This document shows positions 3,929 to 26,580 of a stretch of DNA of 26,580 nt, piece after piece. The DNA is from Geosiphon pyriformis uo1. Taxonomy: Eukaryota > Fungi > Glomeromycota. Both the position numbers and the translations under genes were made by a program. Where the stretch lies: NCBI GenBank assembly GCA_016748015.1, contig JAAOMT010000635.1:4696-31275 (forward strand). The letters run 5' to 3'. Each line of letters starts with the position of its first letter. Within the stretch, counting starts at the first letter, position 1. The notes under the pieces are model-generated. The model ran no database searches. It worked only from the letters and a program-made list of their open reading frames with translations, and had not been told where the DNA came from.

Positions 3929-4267
3929 NNNNNNNNNNNNNNNNNNNNNNNNNNNNNNNNNNNNNNNNNNNNNNNNNNNNNNNNNNNNNNNNNNNNNNNN
4001 NNNNNNNNNNNNNNNNNNNNNNNNNNNNNNNNNNNNNNNNNNNNNNNNNNNNNNNNNNNNNNNNNNNNNNNNNNNNNNNNNNNNNNNNNNNNNNNNNNNN
4101 NNNNNNNNNNNNNNNNNNNNNNNNNNNNNNNNNNNNNNNNNNNNNNNNNNNNNNNNNNNNNNNNNNNNNNNNNNNNNNNNNNNNNNNNNNNNNNNNNNNN
4201 NNNNNNNNNNNNNNNNNNNNNNNNNNNNNNNNNNNNNNNNNNNNNNNNNNNNNNNNNNNNNNNNNNN
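3929..4267. other. Assembly gap (N run)
   Basis: 339 consecutive N. Confidence 1.
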
Positions 4268-5879: not shown

Positions 5880-8140
5880 TATTTTCAGTGTTTCAGATTT
5901 CTTTAAGGTTTAGTCTTTTCGAAAATGTGATTATAGGTTAAAAAAAACTATTTGCAATCTTGAGAACTAGATTGTAGAATTAAGAAATTTATCAATAAGC
6001 TATTAATAATAACAAACATTGTCAGTTTTTATTACATCTTTGGGTTCCAAAAAATCTTTACCCATTTAAACAATGTACAAAAAAAACATTTATTTTCAGA
6101 ATTTTCTAGTGTTTCAGATTTTTTTAAGACCAAAGCTTTTCAGAAACTTGATTATAAATTAAAATTCTTATTTATTAGCAAAATTAAATACTTCTTTACT
6201 TATCCAAAATATTGGAGGTTTAATAATTCATTTGTGTTGCTACAAAAAATCATGTCTTCAATTTTATTAATTGAAAACACAATTTCATTTTTCACATGGC
6301 TTGAAAAAGCATTAATTGCCATCAAAAAAAATTTGGCCATTTTTTCAGCTAGTGAATATTCAAAAGTTGCTGACTTGGTAAAAAAATATGTTAAATGCAA
6401 TCAAAAAAAACCTAAAAACTTCTTTAATTGCTTAAATAATAAAAGTTTAAAACATTTAATAGACTATATTTTGTTCAGTTTTTTTTTAGAACATGAAATT
6501 AAAACTATTCTTAATTTAAAAAGAACATTTTTAGAATTTTGAAAAGCAGCAAATGCAAACAACTCTTTTGGACAATTTTTTTTAGAATGTTGCTATAATA
6601 ATAGAATCAGCACTAAACAAGATTGAGAAAAAGCATTTGAACTTTATTTAAAAGCAGCAGAGGCAGGAAATTTAGATGCTAAATATAGCCTTGCAGTTTG
6701 TTATAATAATAGAGAAGAAACAACAAAAGATTTAGAAAAAGCATTCAAACTTTATTCAAAAGCAGCAGAGGTGAGACATATAATAACACAACTCAATCTT
6801 GTATTTTGTTATTTATATGGAAGGAAGACAAAAAATTTTGAAAAAGCATTTTAACTTTGTTCAAAAACAACAAAGATGAGACATACAATAGTACAATTTA
6901 ATCTTGTACTTTTTTATGCTAATAAAAAAGAAACAATGAAAAATTCAGAAAAAGCATTTTAACTTTATTTAAAAACAACAGAGGCAGAACATATATTGGC
7001 ACAATACAATCTTGCAGTTTTTTATGATAATGAAGAAGAAACAACAAATAATTCTGAAAAAACATTTCAATTTTATTTAAAAGCAGCAGAGATGAGATAT
7101 ACAACAGTATAATACAATCTTGCAAATTGTTATTTAAATAGAAAAAGAACAACAAAAAATTTAGAAAAAGCATTTGAACAGTTTTCAAAAGCAGCAGAGG
7201 CAGAACATACAAAAACACAATTAAATCTTGCAGCTTGTTATAATAATAGAGAAAAAATAAAGAAAAATTCAGAAAAGCATTTCAACTTTATTCAAAAACA
7301 GCAGAGGCGAGAAACATAACAACACAATACAATCTTGCACTTTGTTATCAAAATAGATGGGAAATAAGAAAAATTTTAGAAAAAGCATTTAAACTTTATT
7401 CCAAAGCAGCAAAGATGAGAGATTTAAAACTACAATTAAATCTTGTAGCTTGTTATGCTAATGGAGAAAAAACAACTAAAAATTAAGAAAAAGTATTTGA
7501 ACTTTATTTCAAAGCAGCAAAGATAGAAAATTTAAATGCACAATTCAATTTTGCTCTTTGTTATGTTAATGAAATAAAAATAACAAAAAATTTAACAAAT
7601 GTCTTTGAACTTTTTTCAAAAACAGCAAAGATAAGATATACAATAACACAATACAATCTTGCAGTTTGTTATATTAGTAGAAAAAATACAACACAAAATT
7701 CAGAAAAAGCATTCAAACTTTATTTAAAAGCAGCAAAAACAGAACATATACTGACATAATATGATTTTGTACTTTGTTATTTAAATAGAGAAAAAACAAC
7801 AAAAAATTTCAGAAAAAGCATTTAAACTTTTTTCAAAAGCAGCAGAAACAGAACATAAAATGACACAATTCAATCTTACAGCTTTTTATGCTAATACAGA
7901 AAAAATGATAAAAAATATAGAAAAAGCATTTAAATTTTTTTCAAAAGCAACAAAGACAGGAGATTTAAATGCATAATACTATCTTGCAAATTGTTATGTT
8001 AATAGAAAAAAAACAACGAAAAATTTAGAAAAAGCATTTGAATTTTATTCAAAAGCAGCAGAGGCAAAATATATACTAACATAATACAATCTTGCACTTT
8101 GTTATTTATATAGAAAAAAAACAACAAAAAATGAGAAAAA
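5880..8140 (+). pseudogene. Heavily degenerate gene: unknown N-terminal region + helical linker + long Sel1 array
   Basis: ORF 6234-6542 (FSASEYSKVADLVKKYV...FLEHEIKT) continues past a stop into KAANANNSFGQFFL and Sel1 units. The linker is homologous to the minus-strand linker at ~25390-25610. There are many stops and frameshifts, and the 5' boundary is uncertain. Confidence 0.75.
6571..8140 (+). repeat. Degenerate Sel1-like repeat array, about 15 x 108 bp
   Basis: AATCTTGCA...TGTTAT...GAAAAAGCATTTxAACTTTATTCAAAAGCAGCAGAG recurs with ~108-bp period. It is the same family as 1-840 but more A/T-shifted. Confidence 0.92.
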
Positions 8141-10647
8141 ACCATTCAAAATAAATAAAAAACTGCAAAAAATCTAAATTGAATACATAAATACACAAAT
8201 TTCAAATCAGATCAGATAAAAAAAAAAATTAATAATAAGCAAAAGAAAATTGAACTTAAAACATTTGATTTTAAGTAAAGTAGTTTATTATAGAATAAAA
8301 ATTAATTCAATTGGTTTATACAATTGATATAAGAAGTAATTTTATAATGTGTTTTTAGTAGAATATGATATAAAAATTGAAACAAAAAATAATACTTGAT
8401 GCTATTTTCTTTATTTTCAGCTTGCTATCTGTTATTTTATTTGGTCAACTACAAAAAAATAATAAATTGTTACAATAAAAATCTCAGTGTTTACCACATT
8501 AAAAATAGAGAATTGTAATACTAGTTAAGTAGTTTAAAACATTTTGGATTTATTTAAAAATTAAATTTGAAAATTATTCATATTGTCATTCATTTTTACA
8601 ACAAAAAGTTGATCAGTTAATAACTTTCTTTAGACAAGTATTACATTAAATTTTTAAAAAATTTTCTATATAATTTTGTTTCAAATTTTAAGAAATTTAA
8701 TAAAAGTATAGTGCAAACCATTTATAGTTATTAAACAATTTATATAATTTTAAATTGTATCTAGTTTTCTAATTTTAATAATATTAAAAAACTAAACCAT
8801 AAATAAAATAGATTAAGTTCTTTTCTTTCACATTTATAGTTTAATTTTTTGAATTATATTATAATTTATAAAGTTATTAAAGTTTAAAATTAGCCACTTT
8901 TATTATTAATTTTTAATTTTTAGATATTGATCAATTAAGTTTTAGTCAATCAGCAATTATTTAAGTTACATTATTATGTAATAAATTATCAAAGTATTAT
9001 TATTTTCAAAAAGGCTTTTAATTAATATTAATCTAATTTTTAGATGGTTATTTTTTTATAAAAATATAATATCTTTCAGTCTACATGTCTTCTGCTAATA
9101 ACATAACACCATTAACTATGAATATTCTATTCACACCACTATTATATTTGGTTGTCATTATTGAAACAAAAACTCAGATATCAATATTGTTTACATCAGA
9201 CATTAAAGAAATTGTAAAAGTACTATAAGTGATTGTTAAAGAATTTAAGAATGTTATTTGTACTTTATTTATAATCTTGTATTATTATAATATGAATACT
9301 TACTTTGAATTCACAAATAACTTTTTAATAACTATAATATTATATTTCAAAAAATTGCTTAAATCTAAGAGATATACAAAATTCTCTGTAATAAAAATTT
9401 CTGGTTAAATTTAATATTTGAATAATAAATTATACTAAAAAAAAATATAATAACTAAAATACCTATTGTGTATTTGACCAAATAATAATCTAGTTTTAGA
9501 ATTGGTTTTCTAGGCTGTAAAAAGAATTTTAATTATTAAATATTTCAACAACTTATTAGAATATAATATATAATAACTTATTACAATAATTAAGAAACTT
9601 ATATCAGTTAGTGTTAATTTAGGAAAATTAGATTAGAATTGAAAGATTTTTGTCTTTATCTTAATTAAAAAAACTGAAATTGTCTTAAAGCCTATAATTT
9701 TGAAAAAATTTTTTTTGTTAATATTATATATTTTCTAATAAGTTTATTTTGATACAAAAAATATATGAAACATATTAGTTCAAGTAGATAAAACTCAGAT
9801 TTTTTTGTAAAAGCCTAATAAACTTCTCACTAGTAAGAATTTGATATCTTTAAAAATATGTGAATTATTATTAAAATACATGGCATTTTCGAAATCAATT
9901 GTAAGTTCTAATCAAATTTATAAATAAATAATATTCTTTTCGAATTTTTTACTAATGTAATATAAAAAACATATGTCAAGTAACCAATAGGAAAGAAGTA
10001 CATAGTATTAATCTCAATCATATTTAAAAATCTTGGCTTTTTGATTACATTATAATATTCTGAATATTTTTCTTTAAATAATAAATTCATAAATAATTTA
10101 GCATATTGTCGATTACTGAATATAAAAATGAGAGATCACAACTAGACTGTAATACTAAAATTGAAACCTATTTCAAATATTCTTACCTACTATTTTTTTA
10201 ATTAACAATTATTTGCAATAAGTTTTTTATTAGCTTTAAAAGATCAGCTTCAATTTAAAAATTAGGTTTCTTTTAAATTAATTGTTTAATTGTTAATGTT
10301 AAACTTTTTTGTCCAAATTTCTTGTCATAAGTCAAAGAGATTTTTGTGGTAACTATTTTTATTAATGTTATCTGAATTTTCAGCTCAAATAATCTCCCCA
10401 ATTTCAATAAAATTTTTTTTTGATAAATACCAAAGGAGTTTTTTTTGATTGCTTCTTATTTAGAACTACAAAACAGAAATTAAAGTTTAAATTAGAACCA
10501 AAGAGATTTAAAGAATAAATATATACCTGAGTTAAAAATGCTATTTTCATTATGATACAATTTTTTTGTACAATTACACAGTTTAAATTTTTTAATTCTG
10601 TTCAAGCACTAATTACACATTAAATTAATATCACATTACATAAAAAA

Positions 10648-12550
10648 ATGCCACTTTATTTTAAAAAAAAGAGAAACTAAAGATCAAGTTAGAAATGCAA
10701 AAAAATCATATAAAAAAACACATTATACTACTTCAATAAATGATCATAATATTGAAGTAAATGAATTTAACAAACTAAATGTTAGTAATAAAGAGTGAAA
10801 CAATAATAATAACAGTAGATAGAATAATACAGAAGATATGGAAGCCACAATTAAAATAAATACAAAATTAAAAAAACTTAGTTTAATATAGAAAAATGAC
10901 AATTATCTAAAAAAAAAAAAGTAAGACTCTTATATGACAAAAAAGATATTAAAGTCAACCTATTATGATAAATATGAACCAAATAGTTTATTTATTAAAG
11001 CAACAGCTGGAACAAAAAAAATTATTACTTTCTTTAATATTAGTAATACTCAAACTACAGATTTATAATAGTGTATGGAAAGCACAAAAAATTTGATATC
11101 TTGTAAAGTATTGGTTGCTTAATAATAAGCTTTTAATATCAAAATATAAAAAACACCAAAAAACAATTAGAATAATTGATAATAAAGACATTGTAAAAAA
11201 ATGTCATATTTGGATTAGAAACCAAAACTTTAATGCCACTTTAGCCATATTTAAAAAATTCATTGAACATGAATTGTTTTCTAATATTAGAATAAAAAAA
11301 AAAACTAATAGTCTTATAACTACAGTAAAATAACTCAAAATTCTTGGTTATTTATTTTAACAATATTATTAAGGCTTATATTATAATAGACATGAAAAAA
11401 ATGATGTTTTGCAATCTCGAAAAAAAATTTTAAAAAAAATATATGAGCATAAAAAATATATGTTAAAGTATGAAGGTAAATTTATGAATTGAATACATTT
11501 TAACTTACTTAATAAAGAAAAAAAAGAGTTTTTGTAGTCCATAATAAATGCATTTTTTATTCAAATAATAGCAAGCATGACATATAGACTTAGCATAAAA
11601 ATTTATCATTAAGAAAAAAAGAAAATAGAAAATTAATTATGATTAGTAAATTTCTAACTAAAATTGATGAACATTTATGTTTACAACAAAATGATATAAA
11701 AAACTATTCTAATATACTAAAAAGCACAATGCTATTTGCAACCTGATATAAATTAAGATGATTATTAAACAGCAGACTATTTTTTTATATAAATTAAATA
11801 TAAAACAATTCCAATTTTCAAGAAATTATATACAGATTGTACAGTAGTATTTGTTTTTAATAATAGCTCTAATTATGCAGCATTTAATAAAAATGCTTTA
11901 ATTGCAAACAGAATGAATTTAAATCTAGATAGAAAGTAATCATTAATACAAGATACTTCTTTTGGATTAAATAATCAATTATAATTAATGATTTTTCTGA
12001 GAACATATTTAGATAAAAAACTTCAAGAATTGCCTAAAAAAATTAAACAAGTATTAATAGAACAAGGAAAATAGTCATCAAAAAAATTAATATTAGAATG
12101 CCAAAAATACAAAGAAAAAATCAAAGATTCTTCAAGAGTTTCTTATTGTGTATATCAAATAATATCTTTGGAATCTGATTTTCTTACTCGAAAAATACAA
12201 TTAAGGAATTAATCAAAAGTATGAGACATAAGTACATTTTTTTTCCAAAATTTTATTGTGATTTAAATTTTATTAGAAAATATTGGGAAGTTACTAAAAA
12301 ATATACATGTAACAAATACAATTATTCATAGAAAAGATTATAAAAAACAGTGCCTAAAAGTTTTAAATCAGTATCTTTAATAACTATTAGACAATTTTTA
12401 AGAAAATGTTGGTGTTATATGAATCTTTATAGAAAAAATTTTAGTGGAAAATTAGTAGAATATGCTATAAAAAAGTATAAATCTCATAGAAGAATTTCAG
12501 ATAATATTTTTGAAGAATTAGACAAATTAAATAATATTCAAACTTTGTAA
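10648..12550 (+). mobile_element. Degenerate DNA transposon, IS630/Tc1/mariner-like DDE transposase pseudogene
   Basis: ATG at 10648. Fragments read KSTYYDKY, KHQKTIRIIDNKDI..WIR, YYNRHEK (YDGHE), VHNKC (VHDEC, D1, ~11540), FNNSSNYA (FDNSSNHA, D2, 11859) and FPKFYCDLNFI (PKFHCELNFIE, ~12241-12278). The C-terminus IRQFLRKCWCYMNLY...KKYKSHRRI stops at 12550. Element ends are not defined. Confidence 0.82.
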
Positions 12551-13536: not shown

Positions 13537-14509
13537 TGTTACCAAAAGTTTTTGGTCTCTTTTTTTGAATGTTGTTAACGTTGATTTGCTGTGAATTCAC
13601 GTTTTTCAGGAAGTAGTTGAATCTCTAATAAATGAATTTATCTTCAAATTATCTCCTATAATTTGAACTGCTGGGCTTATAAGTAGAATGACCAATTCTT
13701 TGCCAGTTACTTTATGTAGTTACATTGTAGTAAATGTCAACTTTTTCCTAGAAATTGCTCGTCTAGAAGTTCACTAAAAATGTGTAGTTACTTTGCTGTA
13801 AAAGTCAACTCTTCTACAGAAAGCTTATCTGTAGGCTACTCTAATGATTGTAATAAGAAAATAAAAAAAATATAAAAAAAATATAAAAGAAAATAAAATT
13901 TTGTCAAGAGAAACATTTTTTATCCAGGCTTGGAGTTACTAACAGATTATTGAAATTGGTAGCTAATCAATTTCAAAACGTTAGTTGTGTTGAGAGAATT
14001 TCAAGTATAATAATTTAAGAATTTGGTTTTTGAATATTTAATTTTTATTTAAATGTGTAAAAAGTAATTTGTTTCAATTAAGATATCTAAAGTAGAATAC
14101 TATGGTAAGATACTATAAGAAGATATATTTTTTTAAAGAGAGAAGCTCTTCTTTTATACAACTTGTTGTAGTACTAGTTTTTGAACTTGCATTTTTCTCT
14201 TTGCTATAATTTGGGCAAACTAAAGATACATTTCGGCAAACTACAAGTTATTTCACTGAACTATTAATTATTTCGGCAAATTTTCATTAATTTCGGCGAA
14301 TTTTGATTATGTTAAATAGTTCAGGGTATTGTGTAATTTGATTATCTTAATTTCTAGAGTACAAATCGAATTATTGATTAAGTAATAATATTTGATAATT
14401 TAATTAAATAATAAGTAATAATCAAAATAATAATATTATATGCTAATTAATAATAGGAATTATAAAAGTAATTTCATGCTAATTAATAGTTAAAATTCTA
14501 CTGATAATA
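13537..14509 (-). repeat. Putative 3' LTR of element A
   Basis: Begins right after the purine tract GAAGAGAAGA as TATTATC (TGTTA with G>A). It contains TTTCGGCAAA-like repeats (14211-14300) and TATAAAAG (~14151-14158, minus). A candidate end ...GGTAACA lies at 13537. There is no paired copy, so the distal end is uncertain. Confidence 0.55.
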
Positions 14510-15197
14510 TAATCTTCTCTTCAAGACTGAGCTCTGTCAAAATCCAAGCACTATTTGTAATGTTAAGATAGTGGTCCAAGATAATTGAAGTAATTTGGTC
14601 TGAAAATTGTTGAAATTTTAGTTCTGTGAGTTTTCCAATATATTGAATTTTCATTGAATAAAGTATTGGATTTTGTAGAACGTTTTTACAAGTATTGAAT
14701 AAATTATAGAGTTTAGATACTGCTCTAAGTTTGTAGCAAGTGTTTGTTGGTCTAGCTGCTGTCTTGAATTCATTGTGAATTTGTTTTTGTATAGTCTCAA
14801 GAGTGATGTTGGTTGCTTCAAGTTCCAGTTTTTGTTCATAAACTGTTTTTTCAATATGAAAATATCTATATATAAGAGTATATTCATTGTTCTATTCATT
14901 AAGAAATAGTAGAAGTTTTTGTTGTATTGTGGCATTTGGTGGAATGTCAATAGGGGCAATTAAAAGGTTTTCTTTTAGTGCTTGTTTCAAAAGTTTTGAT
15001 AATTGATTTCCAGAGTGACCTCTTGTTTTTTTTCTATAGAGATAATAGTTTTGAGAATTATTTACTACTGGGACTGTAGTTTCTTTCTAAATATAATTAA
15101 TTTGACTTCTATTAATCGTTATAGATAAGTCAGGAAGTGTTTTTAAGGCTAACATTAATTTTTGGGATATTTGTTGAATATTTTGAGGAATAATTAT
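14490..15197 (-). pseudogene. Element A extra ORF (ORF3) downstream of integrase, unknown function
   Basis: Frameshifted reading: IIPQNIQQISQKL...ITINRSQINYI...YRYFHIEK...RAVSKLYNLF...KLTELKFQQF. It is homologous to element B ORF3. The ORF-track frame (14651-14959) is mostly the wrong frame. Confidence 0.7.
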
Positions 15198-15352
15198 GAT
15201 AAAAATTGACTAATTAATAAAGAAAAAGAATAAAGAAATTATTTTTGGATATAGAGTTTTTATTTGTTTTTGGGTTTGAGTGTTTTTTGTAATTATTTAC
15301 TATTTTTGTTTTTATGTTTGTGTATTTAGAAAGGGTTTGTGAAAATGTTAAA

Positions 15353-16735
15353 TTAAGTGTTCAAGTTTGGTTGTTGTTCTATTATAATTATTGGTTCTAA
15401 ATTTCGGGGAATATCTTCAGAATCAATTAAAGAAGAATGTGTACCAATTTGTAGAATTAATAGTTTAAGATTGTTTCTAGAGTGATTGTGTTTCAATCTA
15501 TCTTCATGTGCAACTTTTGCCAGTACTTTGTTATCAAGTCTTAATTTGTATGATTCATTGCCTAGAATTTTGTGGATATAAAATGGTCCATCTTATTTAT
15601 GTTTAAATTTTCCACTTCATTGTTTTTCAGCCTTAGTTCTGTGTAAAAAAATTTTATTTTCAATCTTAAATTCATTGGTAACTGATGGCAGTTTGTTGTC
15701 ATGCCTTTCTTTTTGTAGGGCTTGAGAGTATTCAATATGAATGACTGCTATGTGTCTTTTTCTTTCCAATGTACTAAGAAGAGTGTAGGCTCTTCTTTGG
15801 AGTGTTTCTTGAAAGTTTTTTTTATTAATTGATTGTACTGAATATGTTTTCACTGTAAAATTAATCGGTAATATTGCTGTCTTTTCATAAGTAAGATCAA
15901 ATGGTATGTGTTTCATAATATCTTGTTTTAGTGTTCTGTATGCTAGTAACACTGATAGAATAAAGATATCCTATTCCTGCTCAAAATCTGTTAAGACTTT
16001 GGCTAAAGATTTACACAATGTTCTGTTGAATCATTCTATAAGTTCATTTGTTTGAGGATGATAAGGTAATGATAGAGGTCTTTTGACATTGAATTGTTCA
16101 CAAATTTCTTGTATCAAGTTGTTCACAAAATGTATTCCTTGATCAGATAAAAGTTCAATTGGGCATTTATGTCTACAAATAATGTCTTTATAAATGAAAT
16201 TTGCTACTGATTTTGCATTTGCTTGGATGGCTCTAGCTTTAGGCCATTTGGTGAGATAATCTACTATAACTGCAATATAATAATTTCTTTGAATTGTGAT
16301 AGATAATGGTCTGACTAAATCAATTTCAACTCTGTTAAAAAGTTGTCCAACTTTGATTGAATTTAAAGATTCTATGGGGTGAATTCCTTCTCTTCTTTGA
16401 CAACTATTACAAGATTTTACATATTGTTAAATGTCTTTTTGCATGTGGAGCCAAAAATAATGTTCAAGAGTTTTTGGAATTGTTTCATTTCTTTCTAAGT
16501 GTGCTGAAGAAAGATCTGTGTACATGTTGTATAAAATTGTTTCTTTTTTATTTTCCTGTACTAATCTGAATAGTTGGTTTGGGTTTTTGCAATTTTTGTA
16601 ATAAATTTTGTTGTGGTATATGAAATATTGTTTGAATTGGTATTGTAATCGATGTTTTTCACTTAAAAACCAATCTTCTGACATGGTTAAAGTCTTCAAA
16701 TAGTTTTTAAGGTTGTTGTAATTTCTAAAATCCAT
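15353..16735 (-). pseudogene. Element A integrase (HHCC, DDE core, GPF/SH3-like C-terminus)
   Basis: Own ATG (MDFRNY) and zinc-binding region (SAHL...CKSCNSC). Core motifs are IDLV, YLTKWPKA, SDQGIHF, YHPQTNELIE and LLAYRT. The C-terminus DGPFYI...IPRNLEPIIII stops at 15353. Confidence 0.9.
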
Positions 16736-16790
16736 GGTTGTTTTGTTGTTTTGTTGGTAGTAGTAAGTTGTGGTGGATTTGTTGTTGGTG

Positions 16791-18504
16791 TTAATCTTGT
16801 CTCATTCTTAAAAAACCATTAACATTGGTGTATAATTTTCTTGGTTTGTGGTGTACAATATACTTGTAGTCTGCTAGAAAATTATTCTATCAAGACTGTT
16901 TGTTCAGTTTTTTTTTTATTGAGCTATTTGAGACCAATATTGTCAGTTATAATATCAAATTTTTTTCCATTTTTCAGATATTGTTGAAAATGTTTAAGAG
17001 CCCAAATAACTGTAGCAGCTTCTAATTCAGTTGAGCCATATTTGAGTTCTGTTGGCTTGAGTGTTCTATTGGCATAAACAATAACTTGTTTTTGGCCATT
17101 TTCATCTAATTGTAATAAGATAATACCAAATATCATATGTAAAGCATTAGTAACTAGTTGGAACTGTTTGTTGAAGTCTGGGTAAACAAAAACTGAAGCT
17201 GTTGTCAATTTTGTTTTGAGGGTTTCAAAAGCTTTTTGTTGTTCTTTAGTCTATTGGTATGGCACATTTTTGTTGATAAGATAATTGAGTGGTTTGGCAA
17301 TTTCTGAGAATTTTTTTATGAATTTTCAATAGTAAGAGACTAATTCTATAAATCCTCATAACTCTGTAGTATTTTTGGAAGTTTGAAAGTTTTTGACAGC
17401 ACTGATTGTTCTAGAATTTGGTTTGATTTCATCTTTGCTAACAATGTGTTCAAGAAAAATTAGGCTTGTTTTTCCAAAGTGATATTTCTCAATGTTCAAC
17501 TTTAATTCTGCTTTCCATAATTGTTGAAAAATTTCTTGCAGATAAATGAGATGGGTTTCAAAGCTTGGTGAGTATATATTGGTATTATCAAGATAAACAA
17601 CTACTGATTGCCATAAAAGCCCTTTATATACAACATTTATAAGTCGCTGAAATATTGCTGGTGCATTGCAGAGTCCAAAAGGCATAACATTGAACTCATA
17701 GTTCCCTTCTTGAGTGGTAAATGCTGTTTTGGATCGATCTTTTGGGTCCATTTCGACTTGCCAGTATCTACTTTCTAAGTCTAAAGTTGAGAAGAACTTG
17801 GCTTTTTCTAAGACATCCAGCATATCATCAATTCTTGGAAGAGATTAGACATCTCCAATTTTCATGCTGTTGAGCTGATAATAATCTACACAGAATCTGA
17901 TTTTTCTGTTTTTCTTTTTAATAAAAACTACTGGTGAGGCTCAAGGACTTCTTGATAGTTGAATCAATTCGTTATTGAGTATTCTTTAGATCTCTTCTCT
18001 GATAAATTAATGGCTAGCAGATGGAACTTGAAAGGTTTGTTGTTGTTTTGGTAGAGCATCTCCTGTATGGATCTGATGTTGAACAATATCAGTTTTTCTA
18101 AAATCATTGTTGTTTTTTGCAAATATATCTGCAAATTCAGCTATTAGTTGTTTTAATTGTCTTTGTTGTTGGGATTCTAAGAGACCCATATTGATTCGAA
18201 AAAGTTTTTCTTCCAACAGATAATAGTTTTCAGTAGTAGGGGTGATGCTTGAATTTGAAAATAGAGTATGTCTTATAATTTCGATGAAATTAGAAACAAT
18301 TTGAGGGTTTTTATCTTGGAAGATATTGCTGTTATTACAAGTGATTATTTGGGGTCTCAAAGCAAATAACAAACCTGTAACTTGATGCTTAGTTGATTTT
18401 GTTGGCATTGATCCCAAGATATTGTTATCTGAAGGTTTTAGTTGAGACCTTTGTATAATGGACAGAGATTTAATAGTTGTTTCAGTAGTTTCCCAGAATC
18501 GCAA
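16791..18504 (-). pseudogene. Element A reverse transcriptase + RNase H
   Basis: RT motifs QHQIHTGDA, FSTLDL..YWQV, KTAFTT, VMPFGLCNAPAIFQR and YLDN (YLDD, 17584-17595). RNase H motifs YANRTL..YGSTELEA and ITDN. NVNGFLR (NADGLSR) is followed by a stop at 16791. Confidence 0.92.
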
Positions 18505-18639
18505 TTCTGTTGAATTTTTTTCTCAGCATGATGGCTGGTAATCCTCCTGGTAAGCTATTCTCAAATCTATGAGTGTTTTACCCTTGTTTCACGGGTCTTT
18601 TATCAGTTCTTATGATGTCTGTACTTCAATGCTTAATCC

Positions 18640-19144
18640 TTAATTAATTAGTAAAACAAAAGAATAACAAAGAAAATAAAACAAATAAAAAGAAATAAGA
18701 AAATAAGCCAAGGCAGTAGTAAGTTAGTATTCCGTTAATAGCTGTGATTAAGAGCTATTGTTCTCATATAGTTAAGTATTAATTACTATTAACATGAAGT
18801 GTTAATAGTGGAAAGTAGATTGAGATAATAAATAATTATTTATTTGTGATGTAGAAGATTGCTTAGATTAAATCTAAACTGAGAGGTTTGTCTTTTCTAC
18901 TTCTAATGCTAATATTATATATATATAATTAAGATTCTTTAATTCCTTAATTCTTTACACCAGAAATCCTAGAATTCCTGGAATCCTGCAATTTTTCTGA
19001 GAAAAATTCTGGAATTCTGCAATTCTGCAATTCTTTGTACAAAAATCTTGAAATTTCTGGAATTTTAGAATTCCACATTTATTATGGTTACTTCTGATTG
19101 GCTAATTTATATGCTATTATACTTCTTATATTCTATAAGTAATA
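18640..19144 (-). repeat. Putative 3' LTR of element B
   Basis: Starts TATTAC (TGTTAC) after the purine tract AAAAGAAGAAAA. It contains GGAATTCTGCA-like tandem repeats (18940-19075) and a TATA run at ~18915-18927. The distal end is either 18800 (..TTAACA) or ~18640. Confidence 0.5.
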
Positions 19145-19157
19145 TTATTTTCTTCTT

Positions 19158-19809
19158 TTAATATTGAGCTTCATTGAGATCTTTTAATTTTAATTCTTTA
19201 TCTTTGAGTATTTTTTGAACTTCTTTCTTAAGAATTACTTGGGCTATCTTGTTCTGTAATTTTTTGAATTGAGTATTGGTTATTTTTCTCATTTGGTTAA
19301 TGGTTATAGAATCTATTTCTGAATCAAGTAAGATCTCTGATCGATCTTGAAATTTTATGTATAGCCAGTAAATAGCTCTTGCTTGTGTAGTCAAATTGTT
19401 CTTTCTCACAAATTGTTCTAGTTGTTGCAATATAATCATGTCAAATAATTGTTTTGTTTTATCTATGTATAAGTTCTGAATGTTCAAGTATTGTCCTAAG
19501 TGAAAGTAACAAAAGTTTTTTGGAAATTGTTATATCCACCAATTCCAAATTTCTATAATTAACTCTTGATATTGAGTAACTTTTGGTTGTGTTTCTATTG
19601 TCAATTTTACTTAAGTGATTATTTTGTTCAGAGTGTTTTCTGTTTTTTTCCATATTTTATCCTGTGGTCTTTTTTTAGTGTTTGTGTATCTAATAGTTTG
19701 TTAGTTAATTGTAATTTCTATCTCTTGTTATTGAATCAGTTAAAAAAGTTGTTGTGCCAGTGAGTGAATGCTGTTAGTAATTTCTATTTTCTGCTGTTTT
19801 TTGTTGCAT
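19158..19809 (-). pseudogene. Element B extra ORF (ORF3) downstream of integrase, unknown function
   Basis: Reads ITNSIHSLAQQLF*LIQ*QEIEITIN*QTIRYT...CYFHLGQYLNIQ...RAIYWLYIKF...KITNTQF. Internal stops are TAA, compatible with CAA>TAA. It ends at the PPT. Confidence 0.75.
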
Positions 19810-19846
19810 ATTTTATGTCTTTATATATCTTTTTGGTTGTTCAATT

Positions 19847-21222
19847 TTACATATTGGGTTCAATGATTATAATTGGTTCTAGATCTCGTGGAATCTTATT
19901 TGGTTTAACTAATATTCTTTGTATTCTTAATTGTGAAATATTACTAATAGATGATAATATTATATAGTGGTATTGTTTTAGTTGATTACCATGTGCTGCT
20001 TTGGTTAAGATTTTGTTGTTCAACCTTAATTTATAAGCTTTATTTCTAAAAAATTTTTCTATGTAAAATGGTCTATCTCATTTGAGATCAAAATTTTCAC
20101 TTCATTGTTTTTCTATTTTAGTATGATATAAAAGTACTTTGTTTCCAATCTTGAATTCAACTGGTTTCTCTGATAGTTAGTTATTGTGTCTTTCTTTTTG
20201 TTTTTTTTGTAACTTTTAGATGTTATTAGCTGCTCTTTGCTGTGTGTTTTCTAATATCTTCATTAAGTCATATGTTTTTCTCAACAATGTTCTTTGAAAA
20301 TTCTTTTCTGTTATTGGTTTTGTTGGATATGTTCATATTTTTATCTCCACTGGTAATATTGCTGTTCTACCATATACTAATTCAAATGGTGTTATTTGTG
20401 TAGTATCTTGTTTCATTGTTCAATAAGCAAATAATACTGATGGTATGAACAAATTCCATTTGTCTTGATTTTTTTGGCTGATTTTGGCAATTGCTTTGCA
20501 CAAAGTTCTATTGAATTTTTCAACTAATTCATTGGTTTGTGAATGATATGGTAATGACAATGGTCTTTTAATTCCAAATTTTTGACTTAATTCTTCTAAT
20601 GTTCTGTTTACAAAATAGATTCCTTGATCTGATAATAGTTTTTTTGAACATCTATGTTGACATATTAAATCTTGATAAACAAATTCAGCAATGAATTCAG
20701 CATCTGCTTTTTGAATGACTTTTGCTTTTGGCCATTTTGTAAGATAATTCATGGCTATAGCAATATATCTGTTGTTTTTACTGGTGATTGTCAATGATCT
20801 GACTAAGTCAATTCCAATACAATTGAATGGTTGTCTTACTTTGATTGGTCTCAATGATTTACTGGGTTTTGTTTTATCTCTTCTTTAACAAGCATCACAA
20901 TTTTGTACATATTGAATAATTCCAGATACATTGATGGCCAATAGTATTTTTTTCTGGTTTTTTTCATGGTTGCTTCTTTATGAAAATGTTCTGCTGTTGG
21001 ATCTGAGTGCATATTGAATAATATTGTCTCTTTCTCTGGTTCTGTAATTACTCTGATTGGTTGATCTGGATTTTTTTTGTTCTTTTGGTAAAGTATATTT
21101 TAATGATTGATAAAATATTTTGATTGTTGTTTTATGTTTCTTTGTTTTTTTTGAGATAATTTCTTCTTGAACAATTGGGTATTTATATAATGTTAGAGTT
21201 GTTGATATTTTTGTATATTCAT
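19847..21222 (-). pseudogene. Element B integrase
   Basis: Own ATG (MNIQKYQQL) and HHCC region (MHSDPTAEHF...CDAC). Core motifs are GIDLV, SDQG, YHSQTNELVEKFN and LFAY. The C-terminus reads DRPFYI...IPRDLEPIIII. Confidence 0.9.
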
Positions 21223-21253
21223 CTTTTGTTATATTTTTGAGTTGAAATGTCTT

Positions 21254-22600
21254 CTAGATTTGTCTTATTCATGACAATCCATTAGCATTTCCATTTTTTT
21301 TTTCTTTTTTGTAATGTACTGTGTAATTAAATAGTGAAAGTTCTATCTTCTATCTGGCATAATAATTATTTGTAAATTTTTGTTTCTAGATTAAAGTCAA
21401 TTCTTTGTGATCAGTGTATATGTCAAACTTTTGACTAAAGTATTTTTTCCATTTGATGACAGCCTAATAGATAGCTAAGTGTTCTAGTGCTGAAGTTCTA
21501 TAGTTCTTTTCCACTGGGCTTAAGCTTCTATTGGCATAAGCTATTGGATGTTCTTTTCTATCTGGTTCTTTCTGTAATAGTACTGCTCTCAATGCTTGGC
21601 CTAATGCATCAGTAGTAATGATGAATGGTTTGCTGTGATCTGGATACATCAACACTAAAGCTTGAATAAGCTTTATTCTTAGTATGTCGAACATTTCTTA
21701 TTGAGCTTCTGTTCATTCATATTTTATATTTTTAGTTTGTAAATGATAGAATGGCTGAGCCAGTTTAGAAAAGTTCTTGATAAAACAGCAATAATAGCCT
21801 GTGAATCCCAAAAATACTCTCAGTTTTGTCAAGTTGGTTGATACTGGAAAGTTTTTTACTATTGCAATTTTGTCTGGATCTGTTTTGATACCATCTTTGC
21901 TTACAACATGTTTCCGAAATTTGAGTTTTGTTTTTTCAAAGAAACATTTGTTTGCATTTAACTTCAATCCTGCTCTTCTCAATCTTTCAAACACTTGTTG
22001 AAGATGATATAGATAATTATCAAATATCTTGGAAAACACATTTGTGTTGTCTAAGTAAACAACTATAGATTTCATAGTAGTCTAGTATAGACAATTTCTA
22101 TGAATTATTGGAATGTGGCTGAAGCATTTATTAAGCTAAATGACATAACTTTGAACTTAAAATTTCTTTCTCATGTTGTGAAAGCTGTTTTTTTTTTATC
22201 TTTTGGTTTCATGGCTACTTGCCAATAACCACTGTCTAGATCTAGAGTTGAGAACCATTTTTTCCCTCCAAAAGCATGAAAAAGTTTTTGGATCTTTGGA
22301 GTTAGATAGCTATCTCCTTTTATTACTCCATTCAGTTTTCAGTAATTCACACAAAAACAGATCTTTCTATTCTTTTTATGGACTAGTATCACTGGTGGTA
22401 ATTATGGGTTCATTGATGATTGAATTAATTTGTTGTCAAGCATCTGATTGATTTCTTGACAAATAATCTCATGGCTGGCTGGTGGTACTCTATATGCTTT
22501 CTGTTTAATTAGCATTGCATCTCCAGTCTTGATTTGGTGTTAAATGATGTCAGTTTTGCCAAATTTGTTTTTGCTGGCAAAAATGTCATTGAAGTTGTTA
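21254..22600 (-). pseudogene. Element B reverse transcriptase + RNase H
   Basis: RT motifs HQIKTGDA, FSTLDLDSGYWQV and YLDN (22046-22057). RNase H motifs TDALG, IAYANRSL..EKNY...LEHLAI and YTDHK. NANGLS* (NADGLSR) is followed by a stop at 21254. Confidence 0.92.
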
Positions 22601-23084
22601 AGTAACATTTTGAGTTGCATACATTGTAATGGATCTAGATTTCCCAAGTTTATCTGTTCCAATTGTTTTGGTTGAAGCAGATAACATTTTTTTTTGTTCA
22701 TATATTGTCTGAGATGTAATATTCACATATCTGCATAGTTGTGAAAAGTCTGGAATGGTGTTTGGTAATTGTTCTTCAATTTCAGTAGTTAAATATCCAA
22801 TGATGATTCTTTCTGGTATCTTAATAATATCTCCCATGTTGTTGTAAATAGGAATTTTGATGTAGTTGTGGTTTTTTGCTGGTATGTGTAGATTAACTAA
22901 TCCAATTTTTTTTGATTCACAAAGGATTGTTTCCACTTCAAAAATTTGAACCTAATTCTTCACTTTTCTTCTTATGGTTACCATGTACTGATTATATGAT
23001 AGAATAAAAATTGGTTGATGAATAAAGATAATTTCTCTCTTGTCAACAATTTTTTTTTCTGCCATATTAACTGATACATCTATT

Positions 23085-23479
23085 CTACTTATGAATCCAA
23101 ATTTTTGTATCTTTCTAGCTGTGATCCCTAATTCTTCCCTGTTTTTTACTGATACTAATTGGGCTATTTTAACCAGAGACAGGAATATTGCCTGTGCTAT
23201 TTTTTTGTTTGAATCTATAATATATGTCTTTTTTGAGTTATTTTGTAGCATTGCAATAATATTTCCTACATATCCTGCATTAATTATTTCTTCTCTGATG
23301 TTGATTCTCTTTTTCACTAAACTACTCCTGGATGTTAGTTGAATCATGATTGTTGCTAAAATTTCCAGTGCTATTTTGAGATCAATGCAGATGTGCAAAT
23401 GGGGTTCCAATTTAATGAGATCTTTTTTTGAATATCTCAAATCAAACCCTGCATTAGTATCATGCACATGTTCTGGCAT
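23085..23479 (-). pseudogene. Retroelement-encoded dUTPase domain (trimeric type), degenerate
   Basis: All five motifs are in order: AGFDL (I), SRSS (II), EEIINAGYVG from GGIIDAGYVG (III), KIAQ (IV) and RKIQKFGF from RGxxGFGS (V). Confidence 0.9.
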
Positions 23480-23549
23480 AATATTCTCATTATTATCACT
23501 GAACTATTTCAGTTCCTGTTCTTTGATAAGGTCAAGAAGTGCAATGTAT

Positions 23550-23660
23550 AAGTTGCCTGGTGATGATACTGCCAGCTAACCCATTATTTAGGATCAGTTT
23601 TATGGCCTGACTATCGACTTTAGCATTAGTGTACATGGCAGTAATGGTTTTTTTCTCAAG
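23550..23660 (-). pseudogene. Aspartic protease N-terminal remnant
   Basis: In AKVDSQAIKLILNNGLAGSIITRQL, the NNG at 23580-23588 corresponds to catalytic DSG after G>A. The sequence then jumps to the pre-dUTPase region. Confidence 0.75.
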
Positions 23661-24254
23661 TGCAACTTTATTAAACAATGGTGTTTGTGATGGTTTTTCA
23701 AATTTGAATGGAAAAATTACTGCTAGCAATTTGTCATTGATTACAGTAGCTGAAGTTATATTGCTGGTAGGTAATTTGTTTTGGTTGGGTTTCCCATTAT
23801 TGGGTGAAGCATCTTCTGGAGTAACCAAAAGACTTAAATAATGTTGGACATTCAAGTTTTGGGTGTATCTGGTGCTCAAATTTCATTGTCAAAATCCTAA
23901 TGGCTGGGTTAAAGAACTGGGGATCAGTTGATAGACTACCATTGATGATCTTCAGCTCTGTTGTGTTAGTCTCAGCCTTTGGGTTCTGTTTTAAGATAAG
24001 TTTTGTGACAGTATTTAAATTTGTTGGGATTGATAGATTACTTGAAACTGCAGCTGATAGATAGGCTGAAACTGTAATTGATAAATTACTAGTGTTATTA
24101 GCTGATAAACTGGTGGTTGATAGATTGGCTGTTGCATTATAAGTAGATAATTTGGTTGATATGGTTCTGGGTTTGATTGATAATTCAGAGTCTAAAATCT
24201 GCAATCAGGGTTTTAATATTAATTTCCCGATTGTTGGTTATCTAGTTTTAACCT

Positions 24255-24707
24255 ACAGTCAATTCTCAAATGTCTTTGTTTACTACAATAGTGGCAAACA
24301 TGTGTCTTCTGCTCCCACTGTTAATTGGTTGAGGACAATGAATATAACTGATTCTGGAAACAATTTGTGGTTCTTTAAGTATTACGTTATTATGGAGGTT
24401 GATAAATTGTTTGATTGTTAGCTAAGTATCTCTCTAATTTTTTATCAATAGAATTACTGAATTGTTTCAGCTTAGAGTTCAATTCAAATAATCTATTCAT
24501 TACTAGATTAATGGTCTGAACATGATTGGCTTTGAGTTTGGCTGCTTCAAAATCTCTGGCATGTATAACTGCGGCTTGGAAGTCTGCTAAATGTATTGGA
24601 CATATGCATTGTAAGAGGCTACTGTATAATTTGCAAATAAACTGATTCAAGATCTGGATTGCAGTAAAGTAATCGACATTAATGGTTTATATTTGGTGCA
24701 GATTTTG
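24255..24707 (-). pseudogene. Gag C-terminal half with CCHC zinc knuckle
   Basis: ILNQFI..L...L..I.P....AAV..ARDFE is a capsid-CTD-like pattern. CHYCSKQRHLRIDC at 24255-24296 matches CX2CX4HX4C. Confidence 0.85.
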
Positions 24708-25105
24708 ATGGGAGCATCTTAAGTAAGATTTTTTATTAAGTCGAACTGAATAAAGGAACTGCTGTTTTGGTAAAGATTTGTAGCTTTAATTAATTCTCTA
24801 AAAATTTATTTTTTACTACTATTTGTCCTCTTATTATAAAAAAGCAATTTTAATCAAAGCATAAAATAGAATTACTTATTTAGAAATAATCTCATTCTCA
24901 ATAATAATATTTCTATCTATCAAATAATGAAACAAAATTAATTCTGAAGCAAAGTATATTTGAAAAGAATTTTTATTTTGATCAGAATAAAAAAACTGCA
25001 ATTATAGAAATTATATTTAAAAATGATATTTATTGTTGCTCATTACAATTTTATAAAAGATTAATAGCATAATGAAATCATCAAAAAAATACTTGGTAAT
25101 TTAAA

Positions 25106-26580
25106 TTAAATGTCTTTTTGTCGTTTCTTTTCTATTTTAATAATACCATCCAAGATTGTATAGTGCATATGTATTTTTCTCTCTGCTGTTTTTGAATAGA
25201 GTTCAAATATTTTTTTTTTATTCTTTATTTTCTTTTCTCTCTTTAGATAGCATGATCTAAGATTTTTTTGTGCATTTATATTATCAGCCTCTGCAGCTTT
25301 TGACCAAAGTTCAAATATTTTAACTCTATCTTGAAAAGTGCTGATTTTATCAAAGTAACAATGGCCCAGAAAAAATTGCCCAAAAGAATCTTCCATATTC
25401 GCTGCTTTCTGAAATTTTATGAATGTTTTTGTTGATTCAATATTTGTTTCAATTTCATGTTTTAAAAAGACAAGTAGAATATAGTGAATGAAACTTTTTT
25501 AATATTGTTATTTAAGCAAACAATAAATTCTCTGAATGTTGTTTTATTGTGTTCAAGATATTTTTTCATCATGTCAACAATTTTTGAATAATTATTAAGC
25601 AGCAAATATTTTTGATGATAATGAATGCTTCTCAAATTCTATCAAGAAATTTATATAATTTATTACTAAAGTCCAAAAGGTTTTCATTATTGAAATTTAG
25701 TTTGCTGAAATTCAAATTACTGGACATTCCCTTGAATTTAATGTTTCTTTGAAAAAAAGAGTCAGATTGTCATTTAATTTTGTTAAGTCGATTAATTATT
25801 TTAATTATATATGGGTGAATTTGTGGTAATATTTCACAACATTCAGTAGGGATGTTTTGAAGTAATTTTTTTGTATTACATTTAGTAATGGGGAATGTCT
25901 ATTTAATAGCTCCCAGAAAAGCATTTCTAATACATATACATCAAATTTTCATCTTGAATATATTCAAGATCCCAAAAACACTGTAGTTCATTATATGCTA
26001 ATTGTTTACAAATCACTGAGACTTTTGCATTAAGTTCTTTCAAATTTTAAGAAGTCCAAAATCCAAGAATTTTATAAAATCATCGTGAATTAGAACATTT
26101 AAAGAATTCTTTATAAAGATTTTAAATATCAAAAAGTTAAAAGATTAAGTGAATTTTAACTTAAATAATAATGTTTTTTGCTTTTTAACTATATTTTTTA
26201 CTTACTAAATTACTATGAATAATAATTTTTTTTATAAAAAGCAGACAATTCTTGGGTTAGCTCTTTTGCAAACTGCAATTTTATTGTGCCATTTATTTCA
26301 GCAAAGTTTGATTTAAGGTATTTTTGTGACACCATAATATTTTCATGATAGCTTAGACTTCTTAAAAATTGCATCTTTATAAAATAAATGTTTATTTTAA
26401 GAGTTATTTTCAATGACAAATATATTTTGAAATTAATAATATAATTGTGTATTTGTACTTCTTTTATAAACTCAAATATATTGTTTTTCATGAATTGTTT
26501 TAACTGTTTCAATGCAAAGTGCAAATTGATATCACCTCTTGTTAACTTGGCACTAAAAACCTTTTCAAATTCACTCTTGC
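25106..26580 (-). pseudogene. TKL-type kinase + linker + Sel1 repeats pseudogene (5' end outside window; introns 26375-26458 and 26109-26205)
   Basis: Reads FALKQL...FIKE, intron GTACAA..AAG, MQFLRSLSYHENI; then IIHSNL, intron GTAAGT..AAG, NSLNVLIH..DFG (26055-26063); then MLFWEL. The linker and FGQFFLGHCY...KAAEADNINAQKNL Sel1 units follow. Confidence 0.87.

Follow-up and report, generated by a model that had tools for sequence, protein, structure and literature searches.

Ty3/gypsy retrotransposons of fungi are normally drawn as carrying gag and pol only. Our subject is a third open reading frame (ORF), here called ORF3, which occupies the place of env in two decayed Ty3/gypsy elements, A and B, of the glomeromycotan fungus Geosiphon pyriformis uo1; both lie in a stretch of 26,580 nucleotides (contig JAAOMT010000635.1, positions 4,696 to 31,275), which as a whole is called the window below and to which coordinates refer. 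Extra ORFs between pol and the 3' long terminal repeat (LTR) are already known, and it is the ORF3 protein family itself that is undescribed. Closest in layout are the aORF-3S of elements such as Athila and Bagy2, which share with ORF3 the position, the sense orientation, the occurrence in many copies per family and the lack of an assigned function (PMC7264820). Lying in sense between pol and the 3' LTR and conserved across copies, ORF3 falls into this class, although the aORF-3S described in that source come from plants and insects and are often env-like with transmembrane (TM) segments, whereas ORF3 is fungal, predicted to be soluble and without a Pfam match. In maize Grande (gene23), other aORF-3R and Boty of Botrytis and Sclerotinia, an accessory gene likewise lies between pol and the 3' LTR; these genes are antisense while ORF3 is sense, and the likeness found is one of position (PMC7264820). 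GENE23 of Grande is described there as nuclear and as having its own promoter. The sORF1 and sORF2 of the Drosophila MDG1 group are also non-env accessory ORFs of gypsy elements, sORF1 with a predicted helix-turn-helix; they are small, lie generally upstream of gag and include a TM fusogen (sORF2), whereas ORF3, with 210-240 aa, lies behind pol and lacks a TM segment (PMC11952523).

A literature search found no title or abstract opening describing the ORF3 gene, supplements and the Geosiphon genome paper lying outside its scope. The words 'envelope', 'dUTPase' and 'additional ORF' do not occur in the main text of a survey of transposable elements (TEs) in arbuscular mycorrhizal fungi (AMF; PMC11952901), nor do 'env' or 'third ORF' in the accessible text of a survey of fungal LTR elements (PMC3248453). 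In the legend of Figure 3 of PMC2864245, on fungal and spikemoss elements, an 'additional ORF with unknown function' is mentioned, and this entry may bear on the novelty of ORF3.

Frames, conservation and copies of ORF3

The preliminary description of this locus, made from the sequence alone, had placed two frames in the env position. Both were located there, in sense orientation on the minus strand; the start given for B, at 19809, is an ATG in another frame.

14490-15197, minus strand: ORF3 of element A, 235 codons plus stop in one frame, with 2 internal stops and a start decayed to ATA; the last codons overlap the polypurine tract (PPT) and the LTR
19158-19787, minus strand: ORF3 of element B, 209 codons plus stop in one frame, with 5 internal stops and a start decayed to ATA
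14577-14726, minus strand: block 3 of the alignment in A, the C-terminal half of the conserved helical core
19230-19379, minus strand: block 3 in B, ungapped against A

The methionine conserved in intact copies aligns to 15197 in A and to 19787 in B; some intact B-type copies have a 10-residue N-terminal extension, which would reach about 19816 in B. Inside either ORF3 no frameshift repair is necessary, and stops are few: shuffled DNA contains about 18 per frame, and none of 2000 shuffles was as low as the observed values in A and B. Both stops of A and three of the five in B stand at positions that are mostly glutamine in intact copies, which fits C-to-T decay after insertion. Both window copies are dead relics.

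The two relics align far above chance at the protein level. The Smith-Waterman score of A against B is 108, compared with 41 +/- 7 (maximum 83) for shuffled sequences, and none of 5000 shuffles comes as high; for the C-terminal half by itself the score is 86 and the shuffle maximum 66. The comparison thus withstands its shuffled controls, and the three alignment blocks reported earlier were all recovered, including the 14 identities in 50 ungapped residues of block 3, where 79 slid registers average 3.8 and never exceed 7. The five other frame pairs score 32-45, against 107 for the ORF3 frame. Nucleotide identity by codon position in the ungapped block is 0.38/0.76/0.34 (0.29/0.32/0.34 in slid registers), and 0.38/0.58/0.33 (expected 0.30/0.33/0.34) in the full protein-guided alignment, where the pattern is partly built in by the alignment; between A and B, position 2 is conserved and position 3 is at background.

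Intact copies are numerous. ORF3-A has 207 homologs, of which the 120 listed are all Geosiphon pyriformis gene models, as are all 51 homologs of ORF3-B; identity to the window ORF3s reaches 84%, and the expectation of an open frame in other copies is borne out by dozens of these models. Among the 120 listed A homologs, 73 are full length (215-245 aa) and divide into subfamilies A1 (n=28) and A2 (n=45). A profile search of 1.84 billion representatives returned 110 matches and a further search 15, and the 20 proteins looked up by name comprise 12 from Geosiphon and 8 from metagenomes. A tree of 30 chosen sequences contains six Geosiphon and four metagenome subfamilies, about ten in all, which keep the same motifs at core identities of 14-39% between subfamilies (74% for A1/A2). 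No ORF3 relatives were found in viral contigs, plasmids or phages. The suggested kinship with an expanded AMF domain ('RA.KIY.LF') found no backing, there being no named match outside Geosiphon among the 20 looked-up proteins, the 120 listed homologs of A or the 51 of B. Hundreds of Geosiphon gene models annotated as 'hypothetical proteins' of the host most likely represent a single retrotransposon accessory gene, a point of importance for annotation and gene counts.

Fixed differences between A1 and A2 fall on 8 of 100 core sites and 35 of 121 other sites, whereas private changes are even (114 against 160; Fisher p=0.004), and the fixed changes are the more conservative ones (mean BLOSUM 0.19 against -0.49 for private changes, p=0.005). 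A core depleted of fixed differences alongside even private changes suggests selection during replication and neutral decay afterwards, in tests run on gene models, which favour open copies. The codon-position pattern, the frame-specific alignment and the depleted core support conservation at the protein level, as had been proposed, and ORF3 is almost certainly a real, selected accessory gene. Could it instead be a captured or hitch-hiking sequence without a current role, or merely conserved cis-acting DNA? Such a passenger would suit the overlap of the 3' end of ORF3 with the PPT and LTR in A-type elements, and also the broken state of both window copies. The conservation of position 2 with position 3 at background, the failure of other frames to align, the depletion of the core and the retention of the same motifs across about ten diverged subfamilies speak against it, and this explanation, already largely refuted, is highly improbable.

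Linkage to integrase and the 3' region of the elements

An integrase piece is present in 23 of the 281 retrieved proteins. It stands clearly N-terminal of ORF3 in 13, N-terminal with overlap of the hidden Markov model (HMM) envelope in 8 and C-terminal in 1, and the last has no ORF3 match. These models probably join adjacent frames across predicted introns and therefore point to adjacency, not fusion; among the retrieved proteins the linkage was not seen for the Geosiphon subfamilies P0198 and P0274. The same arrangement occurs in another organism: metagenome contig L001 carries reverse transcriptase (RT)/RNase H, an integrase with SH3, a 316-nt spacer, an intact ORF3 of 230 codons (26% identical to each window copy) and then an LTR, this being the one of the four metagenome subfamilies whose element context was read. 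The linkage of ORF3 to integrase that had been put forward for testing is thus found both in other copies and in an element of a different organism.

The features adjoining ORF3 in the window are the following.

15198-15352, minus strand: spacer between the integrase stop of A and ORF3, 155 nt, non-coding, with 2 G and no TATA consensus
19788-19846, minus strand: spacer between the integrase stop of B and ORF3, with TATATAAA at 19827-19820 (chance 0.09-0.40, not significant)
about 14522-14513, minus strand: PPT of A, inside ORF3
19148-19159, minus strand: PPT of B, directly behind the ORF3 stop and overlapping it

The placement of ORF3 between the integrase stop and the PPT, as first described, is exact for B; the A-type ORF3 crosses the PPT into the LTR. 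In L001 and L002 the LTR (TGTTACC...GGTAACA) begins inside the last ORF3 codons, behind a purine tract, and window A has the same layout. At all three loci (A, B and L001) pol closes with its own stop before ORF3, so that for ORF3 to be expressed, either a sub-genomic RNA or internal initiation would be required.

In the sense strand, the spacers that precede ORF3 contain very little G, with 2 in 155 nt at 15198-15352 and 13 in 316 nt at L001 2140-2455. A similar DNA motif lies just before the PPT (14534-14503, 19171-19139 and L001 3085-3123) and its reading frame differs: in A-type ORF3 it gives xELxLEEEIML, which continues into the LTR (99 of 283 proteins), and in B-type ORF3 FxGAQY-stop (31 of 283); the motif may be a conserved cis element.

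Predicted fold, possible relatives and role of ORF3

In the AlphaFold model of the full-length protein (predicted local distance difference test, pLDDT, 78), an N-terminal helix and beta-hairpin of low confidence are followed by a disordered linker and then by a helical core. Modelled separately, the core reaches a pLDDT of 92.7 and a predicted template modelling score (pTM) of 0.85, a confident prediction that agrees with the helical fold proposed at the outset. Conservation is highest in columns of Y, G, L, N, R, F and I, and the sole acidic column is at 6/10, which leaves no conserved catalytic set. ORF3 lengths range from 209 to 240 aa, with 1-3 cysteines in no conserved pattern. In a hydropathy scan of 11 representatives, no 19-residue stretch exceeds a Kyte-Doolittle mean of 1.29, indicating no TM segment, and Pfam finds no chromodomain; the initial view that the protein has neither signal peptide nor TM helix and is neither env nor a chromodomain can therefore be retained. 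An env-like protein or a FAST/sORF2-like fusogen serving cell-to-cell spread would be in keeping with a sense ORF in the env position, yet with neither a TM segment nor a hydrophobic leader, with unpatterned cysteines and with a soluble helical model this role is scarcely credible. Both the env-like and the sORF2/FAST-like identity were rejected on the lack of a TM segment by hydropathy, the latter also on the length of 209-240 aa.

ORF3 has no match above cut-off in Pfam or PHROGs and none in sequence searches of the PDB. An RGS match of the window B ORF3 (E 4e-4) was below the cut-off, recurred in 1 of 21 members and was discarded. The claim that no described Ty3/gypsy accessory domain is matched holds across Pfam, PHROGs, the PDB and Foldseek, none of which gave a significant match, and the ORF3 core is thus a confidently modelled helical domain without a significant match among solved structures.

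What could be the role of such a protein? We tentatively favour the view that ORF3 is a separate third gene of a chromodomain-less Ty3/gypsy lineage, maintained under purifying selection, its product being a soluble nuclear DNA-binding accessory protein that acts on the element's own LTR. It would boost transcription from that LTR or counter its silencing by the host. Its expression would proceed from a sub-genomic transcript begun in, or spliced into, the spacer; nuclear import would be conferred by a basic R/K/H-x2-5-PY linker and DNA binding by a helical module resembling those of ParB, KorB or DUF1016-N, and the protein would co-evolve with the fast-diverging LTRs.

The linker of 7 of the 11 representatives contains the R/K/H-x2-5-PY motif (shuffle rate 0.01-0.06 each), which is the core of the PY-type nuclear localization signal (PMC2408616). 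For DNA binding, structural comparison of the core by VIA-align gives rows below significance: Spo0J at Z 5.2 (root-mean-square deviation, rmsd, 4.8; 90 aligned residues, the widest coverage of the top rows), sigma-F at Z 4.8 (57 aligned, rmsd 2.5), KorB at Z 4.2 (54, 2.3) and ParB at Z 4.1 (57, 2.5). Comparison with the Atlas adds DUF6192 and DUF3102 as leads to DNA binding, both under 0.9. A resemblance to the Y..IG pattern of DUF1016-N had been noted at the outset. When a 20-sequence profile of the ORF3 core was compared with a 9-sequence DUF1016-N profile, 63 columns aligned with a score of 26 (pairwise E 0.0015, probability 16.8%), which 0 of 60, 0 of 232 and 0 of 232 column or block shuffles reached; the alignment is in register, with Y..IG..L followed by the N.R..R.Y..F helices. 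The resemblance is weakly supported, by an in-register profile alignment above all shuffles, and fails in Pfam, where the scores stay under half of the cut-off. DUF1016_N is the N-terminal domain of YhcG, which in addition has a PD-(D/E)XK nuclease domain that ORF3 lacks. DUF1016 genes have been found on bacterial mobile elements (PMC4316617).

Identity between the two window copies is 21% in ORF3 and 43-56% in the main pol segments, so ORF3 diverges faster than pol; such speed, in elements whose LTRs are unrelated, accords with co-evolution of the protein and its targets in cis. Helpers of this general kind are known, foamy-virus Tas being a retroviral trans-acting DNA-binding protein to which ORF3 bears a functional analogy only. 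An analogy of function alone also holds for VANC of VANDAL/MuDR, an element-encoded, trans-acting, DNA-binding anti-silencing helper, which belongs to plant DNA transposons and not to a fungal retrotransposon (PMC13547354); no sequence or fold link to either helper was found, and none was specifically sought. In the related fungus Rhizophagus, TEs are silenced by methylation and small RNA (10.1101/2021.03.30.436303), and a striking LTR expansion is described for Geosiphonaceae (PMC11952901). A selected non-env accessory protein in expanded LTR families is a testable candidate for escape from silencing.

Some of this evidence would serve a different role equally well. ORF3 might be a nuclear integration cofactor, importing the pre-integration complex or tethering it to chromatin in place of the missing chromodomain: the integrases of A, B and L001 end in SH3/GPY-F without one, most fungal gypsy elements do carry one (PMC3248453), the PY/basic linker and the weak hints of DNA binding are just as suitable, and such roles have been proposed for nuclear aORF proteins (PMC7264820). 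The apparent nesting of B in A also accords with this idea, but a single nested insertion says little about targeting, and divergence much faster than that of integrase is unexpected in its obligate partner. We consider an integration cofactor unlikely, though not negligibly so.

Another possibility is suggested by comparison with the Atlas, in which the top named cluster for two distant members is the closterovirus coat protein (PF01785; 0.92 and 0.93), followed by RegA-type translation repressors. Among the unnamed clusters the highest-ranking ones consist of hypothetical proteins of Mucoromycota, perhaps the ORF3 family itself. Together with the helical domain of PNPase (Z 5.9) and the PFV2 capsid (Z 5.0), the coat-protein and RegA-type clusters would suit an RNA-binding protein, for instance an RNA interference (RNAi) suppressor or a coat- or nucleocapsid-like protein from a filamentous RNA virus, that protects or moves the element RNA. 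However, the features shared with the coat cluster number 150 and 156, where 170 are typical of true family members, and the recognition values are below 2300; the best 50 Foldseek rows against viral models contain no coat protein for either model, and no Pfam coat family matches. An RNA-binding role is a rather unlikely one.

The proposal of a DNA-binding protein acting on its own LTR has in turn to be weighed against a number of observations. The PY motif is absent from the B subfamily (window B included), from P0275 and P0272 and from the window's A copy; it is present in just 55 of 162 proteins that cover the N-terminus; the 11 representatives do not count as independent; and several of them, with a pI of 5.0-5.9 in P0272, P0211 and P0206, lack a basic character. 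The TATA consensus in two of three spacers (B and L001, not A) occurs at chance rates of 0.09-0.45 and leaves an internal promoter unsupported, and no binding site was identified in the LTRs. Foldseek gave no match at E <= 0.001 (PDB and BFVD for the full model, BFVD for the core), and the best VIA-align scores were Z 5.9 with the core, to PNPase, where no chain of 48,161 reaches Z 8, Z 4.7 with the full model and Z 4.5 at a second look. The ParB-family rows recur at Z 4.1-5.2 and do not rise above unrelated rows, and the leading Atlas cluster given above is not a DNA binder. DUF1016_N (PF17761) is hit by Pfam in 3 of 8 A2 copies at E 0.05-0.12 and 13-14 bits (best 14.1, cut-off 32.8), and a single YhcG sequence does not match the ORF3 profile; because the family was picked after the fact, this kinship is a lead only.

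A bolder form of the LTR-acting proposal would derive ORF3 from a DUF1016-N/ParB-like module of bacterial mobile elements, turned into a sequence-specific LTR transactivator or anti-silencing factor, a fungal counterpart of VANC and a driver of the Geosiphon LTR expansion, in an old gypsy lineage of mycorrhiza-type fungi; we regard this chain as doubtful. The probability that remains beyond the favoured role and the four alternatives belongs to some role not listed here.

Host elements and their surroundings

The window consists of AT-rich DNA with a Sel1-repeat/kinase gene cluster and the two decayed elements, both on the minus strand, whose order of RT, RNase H and integrase places them in Ty3/gypsy (Metaviridae).

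15353-18329, minus strand: decayed pol of element A, with RT, RNase H and integrase ending in SH3/GPY-F and lacking a chromodomain; the window contains neither gag nor 5' LTR of this element
19847-24728, minus strand: element B in decayed form, reading gag-protease-dUTPase-RT-RNase H-integrase, with its 5' end lost within gag
13537-14509, minus strand: putative 3' LTR of A, 973 bp, starting TATTATC (two transitions from TGTTACC) and ending GGTAACA, with the same termini in L001 and L002
18330-19147, minus strand: putative 3' LTR of B, 818 bp, TAATATTAC...GTAATAACA, abutting the pol of A

In Pfam the integrase tails of A, B and L001 give weak SH3_Tf2-1 matches only and no chromodomain, which sets the elements apart from chromoviruses. 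The parts of B that we take to be gag and protease were identified by eye from known motifs. Its dUTPase, at about 23100-23480 (minus strand) between protease and RT, is matched in Pfam at E 6e-13; Postia elements have a dUTPase in the same placement, and Phanerochaete and Tuber elements also carry one (PMC2864245). In the gene model P0119 a dUTPase is joined to an A2-type ORF3.

No LTR pair was found for A or B in the window, only 3' LTRs recognized by terminal inverted motifs, and their limits are drawn from the termini because both elements lack their 5' ends. Parts of the 18330-19147 stretch follow B-type ORF3 in other gene models. That the two LTRs are dissimilar, as stated from the start, is confirmed by their sole common stretch, a 42-bp AT-rich match. 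Since the putative 3' LTR of B abuts the pol of A just upstream of RT, B is apparently nested in A; the absence of both the 5' LTR of B and the gag of A, together with this abutment, suggests a nested insertion followed by a deletion.

A heavily decayed DDE transposase relic at about 10400-12540 (plus strand; DDE_3 E 0.0025, below cut-off) adjoins the 3' end of A. There is a sequence gap at 3929-4267. A Sel1-repeat/Tyr-kinase-like gene and two more decayed Sel1-repeat copies (108-bp period) flank the elements, at 1-2342, 5964-8186 and 25106-25600.

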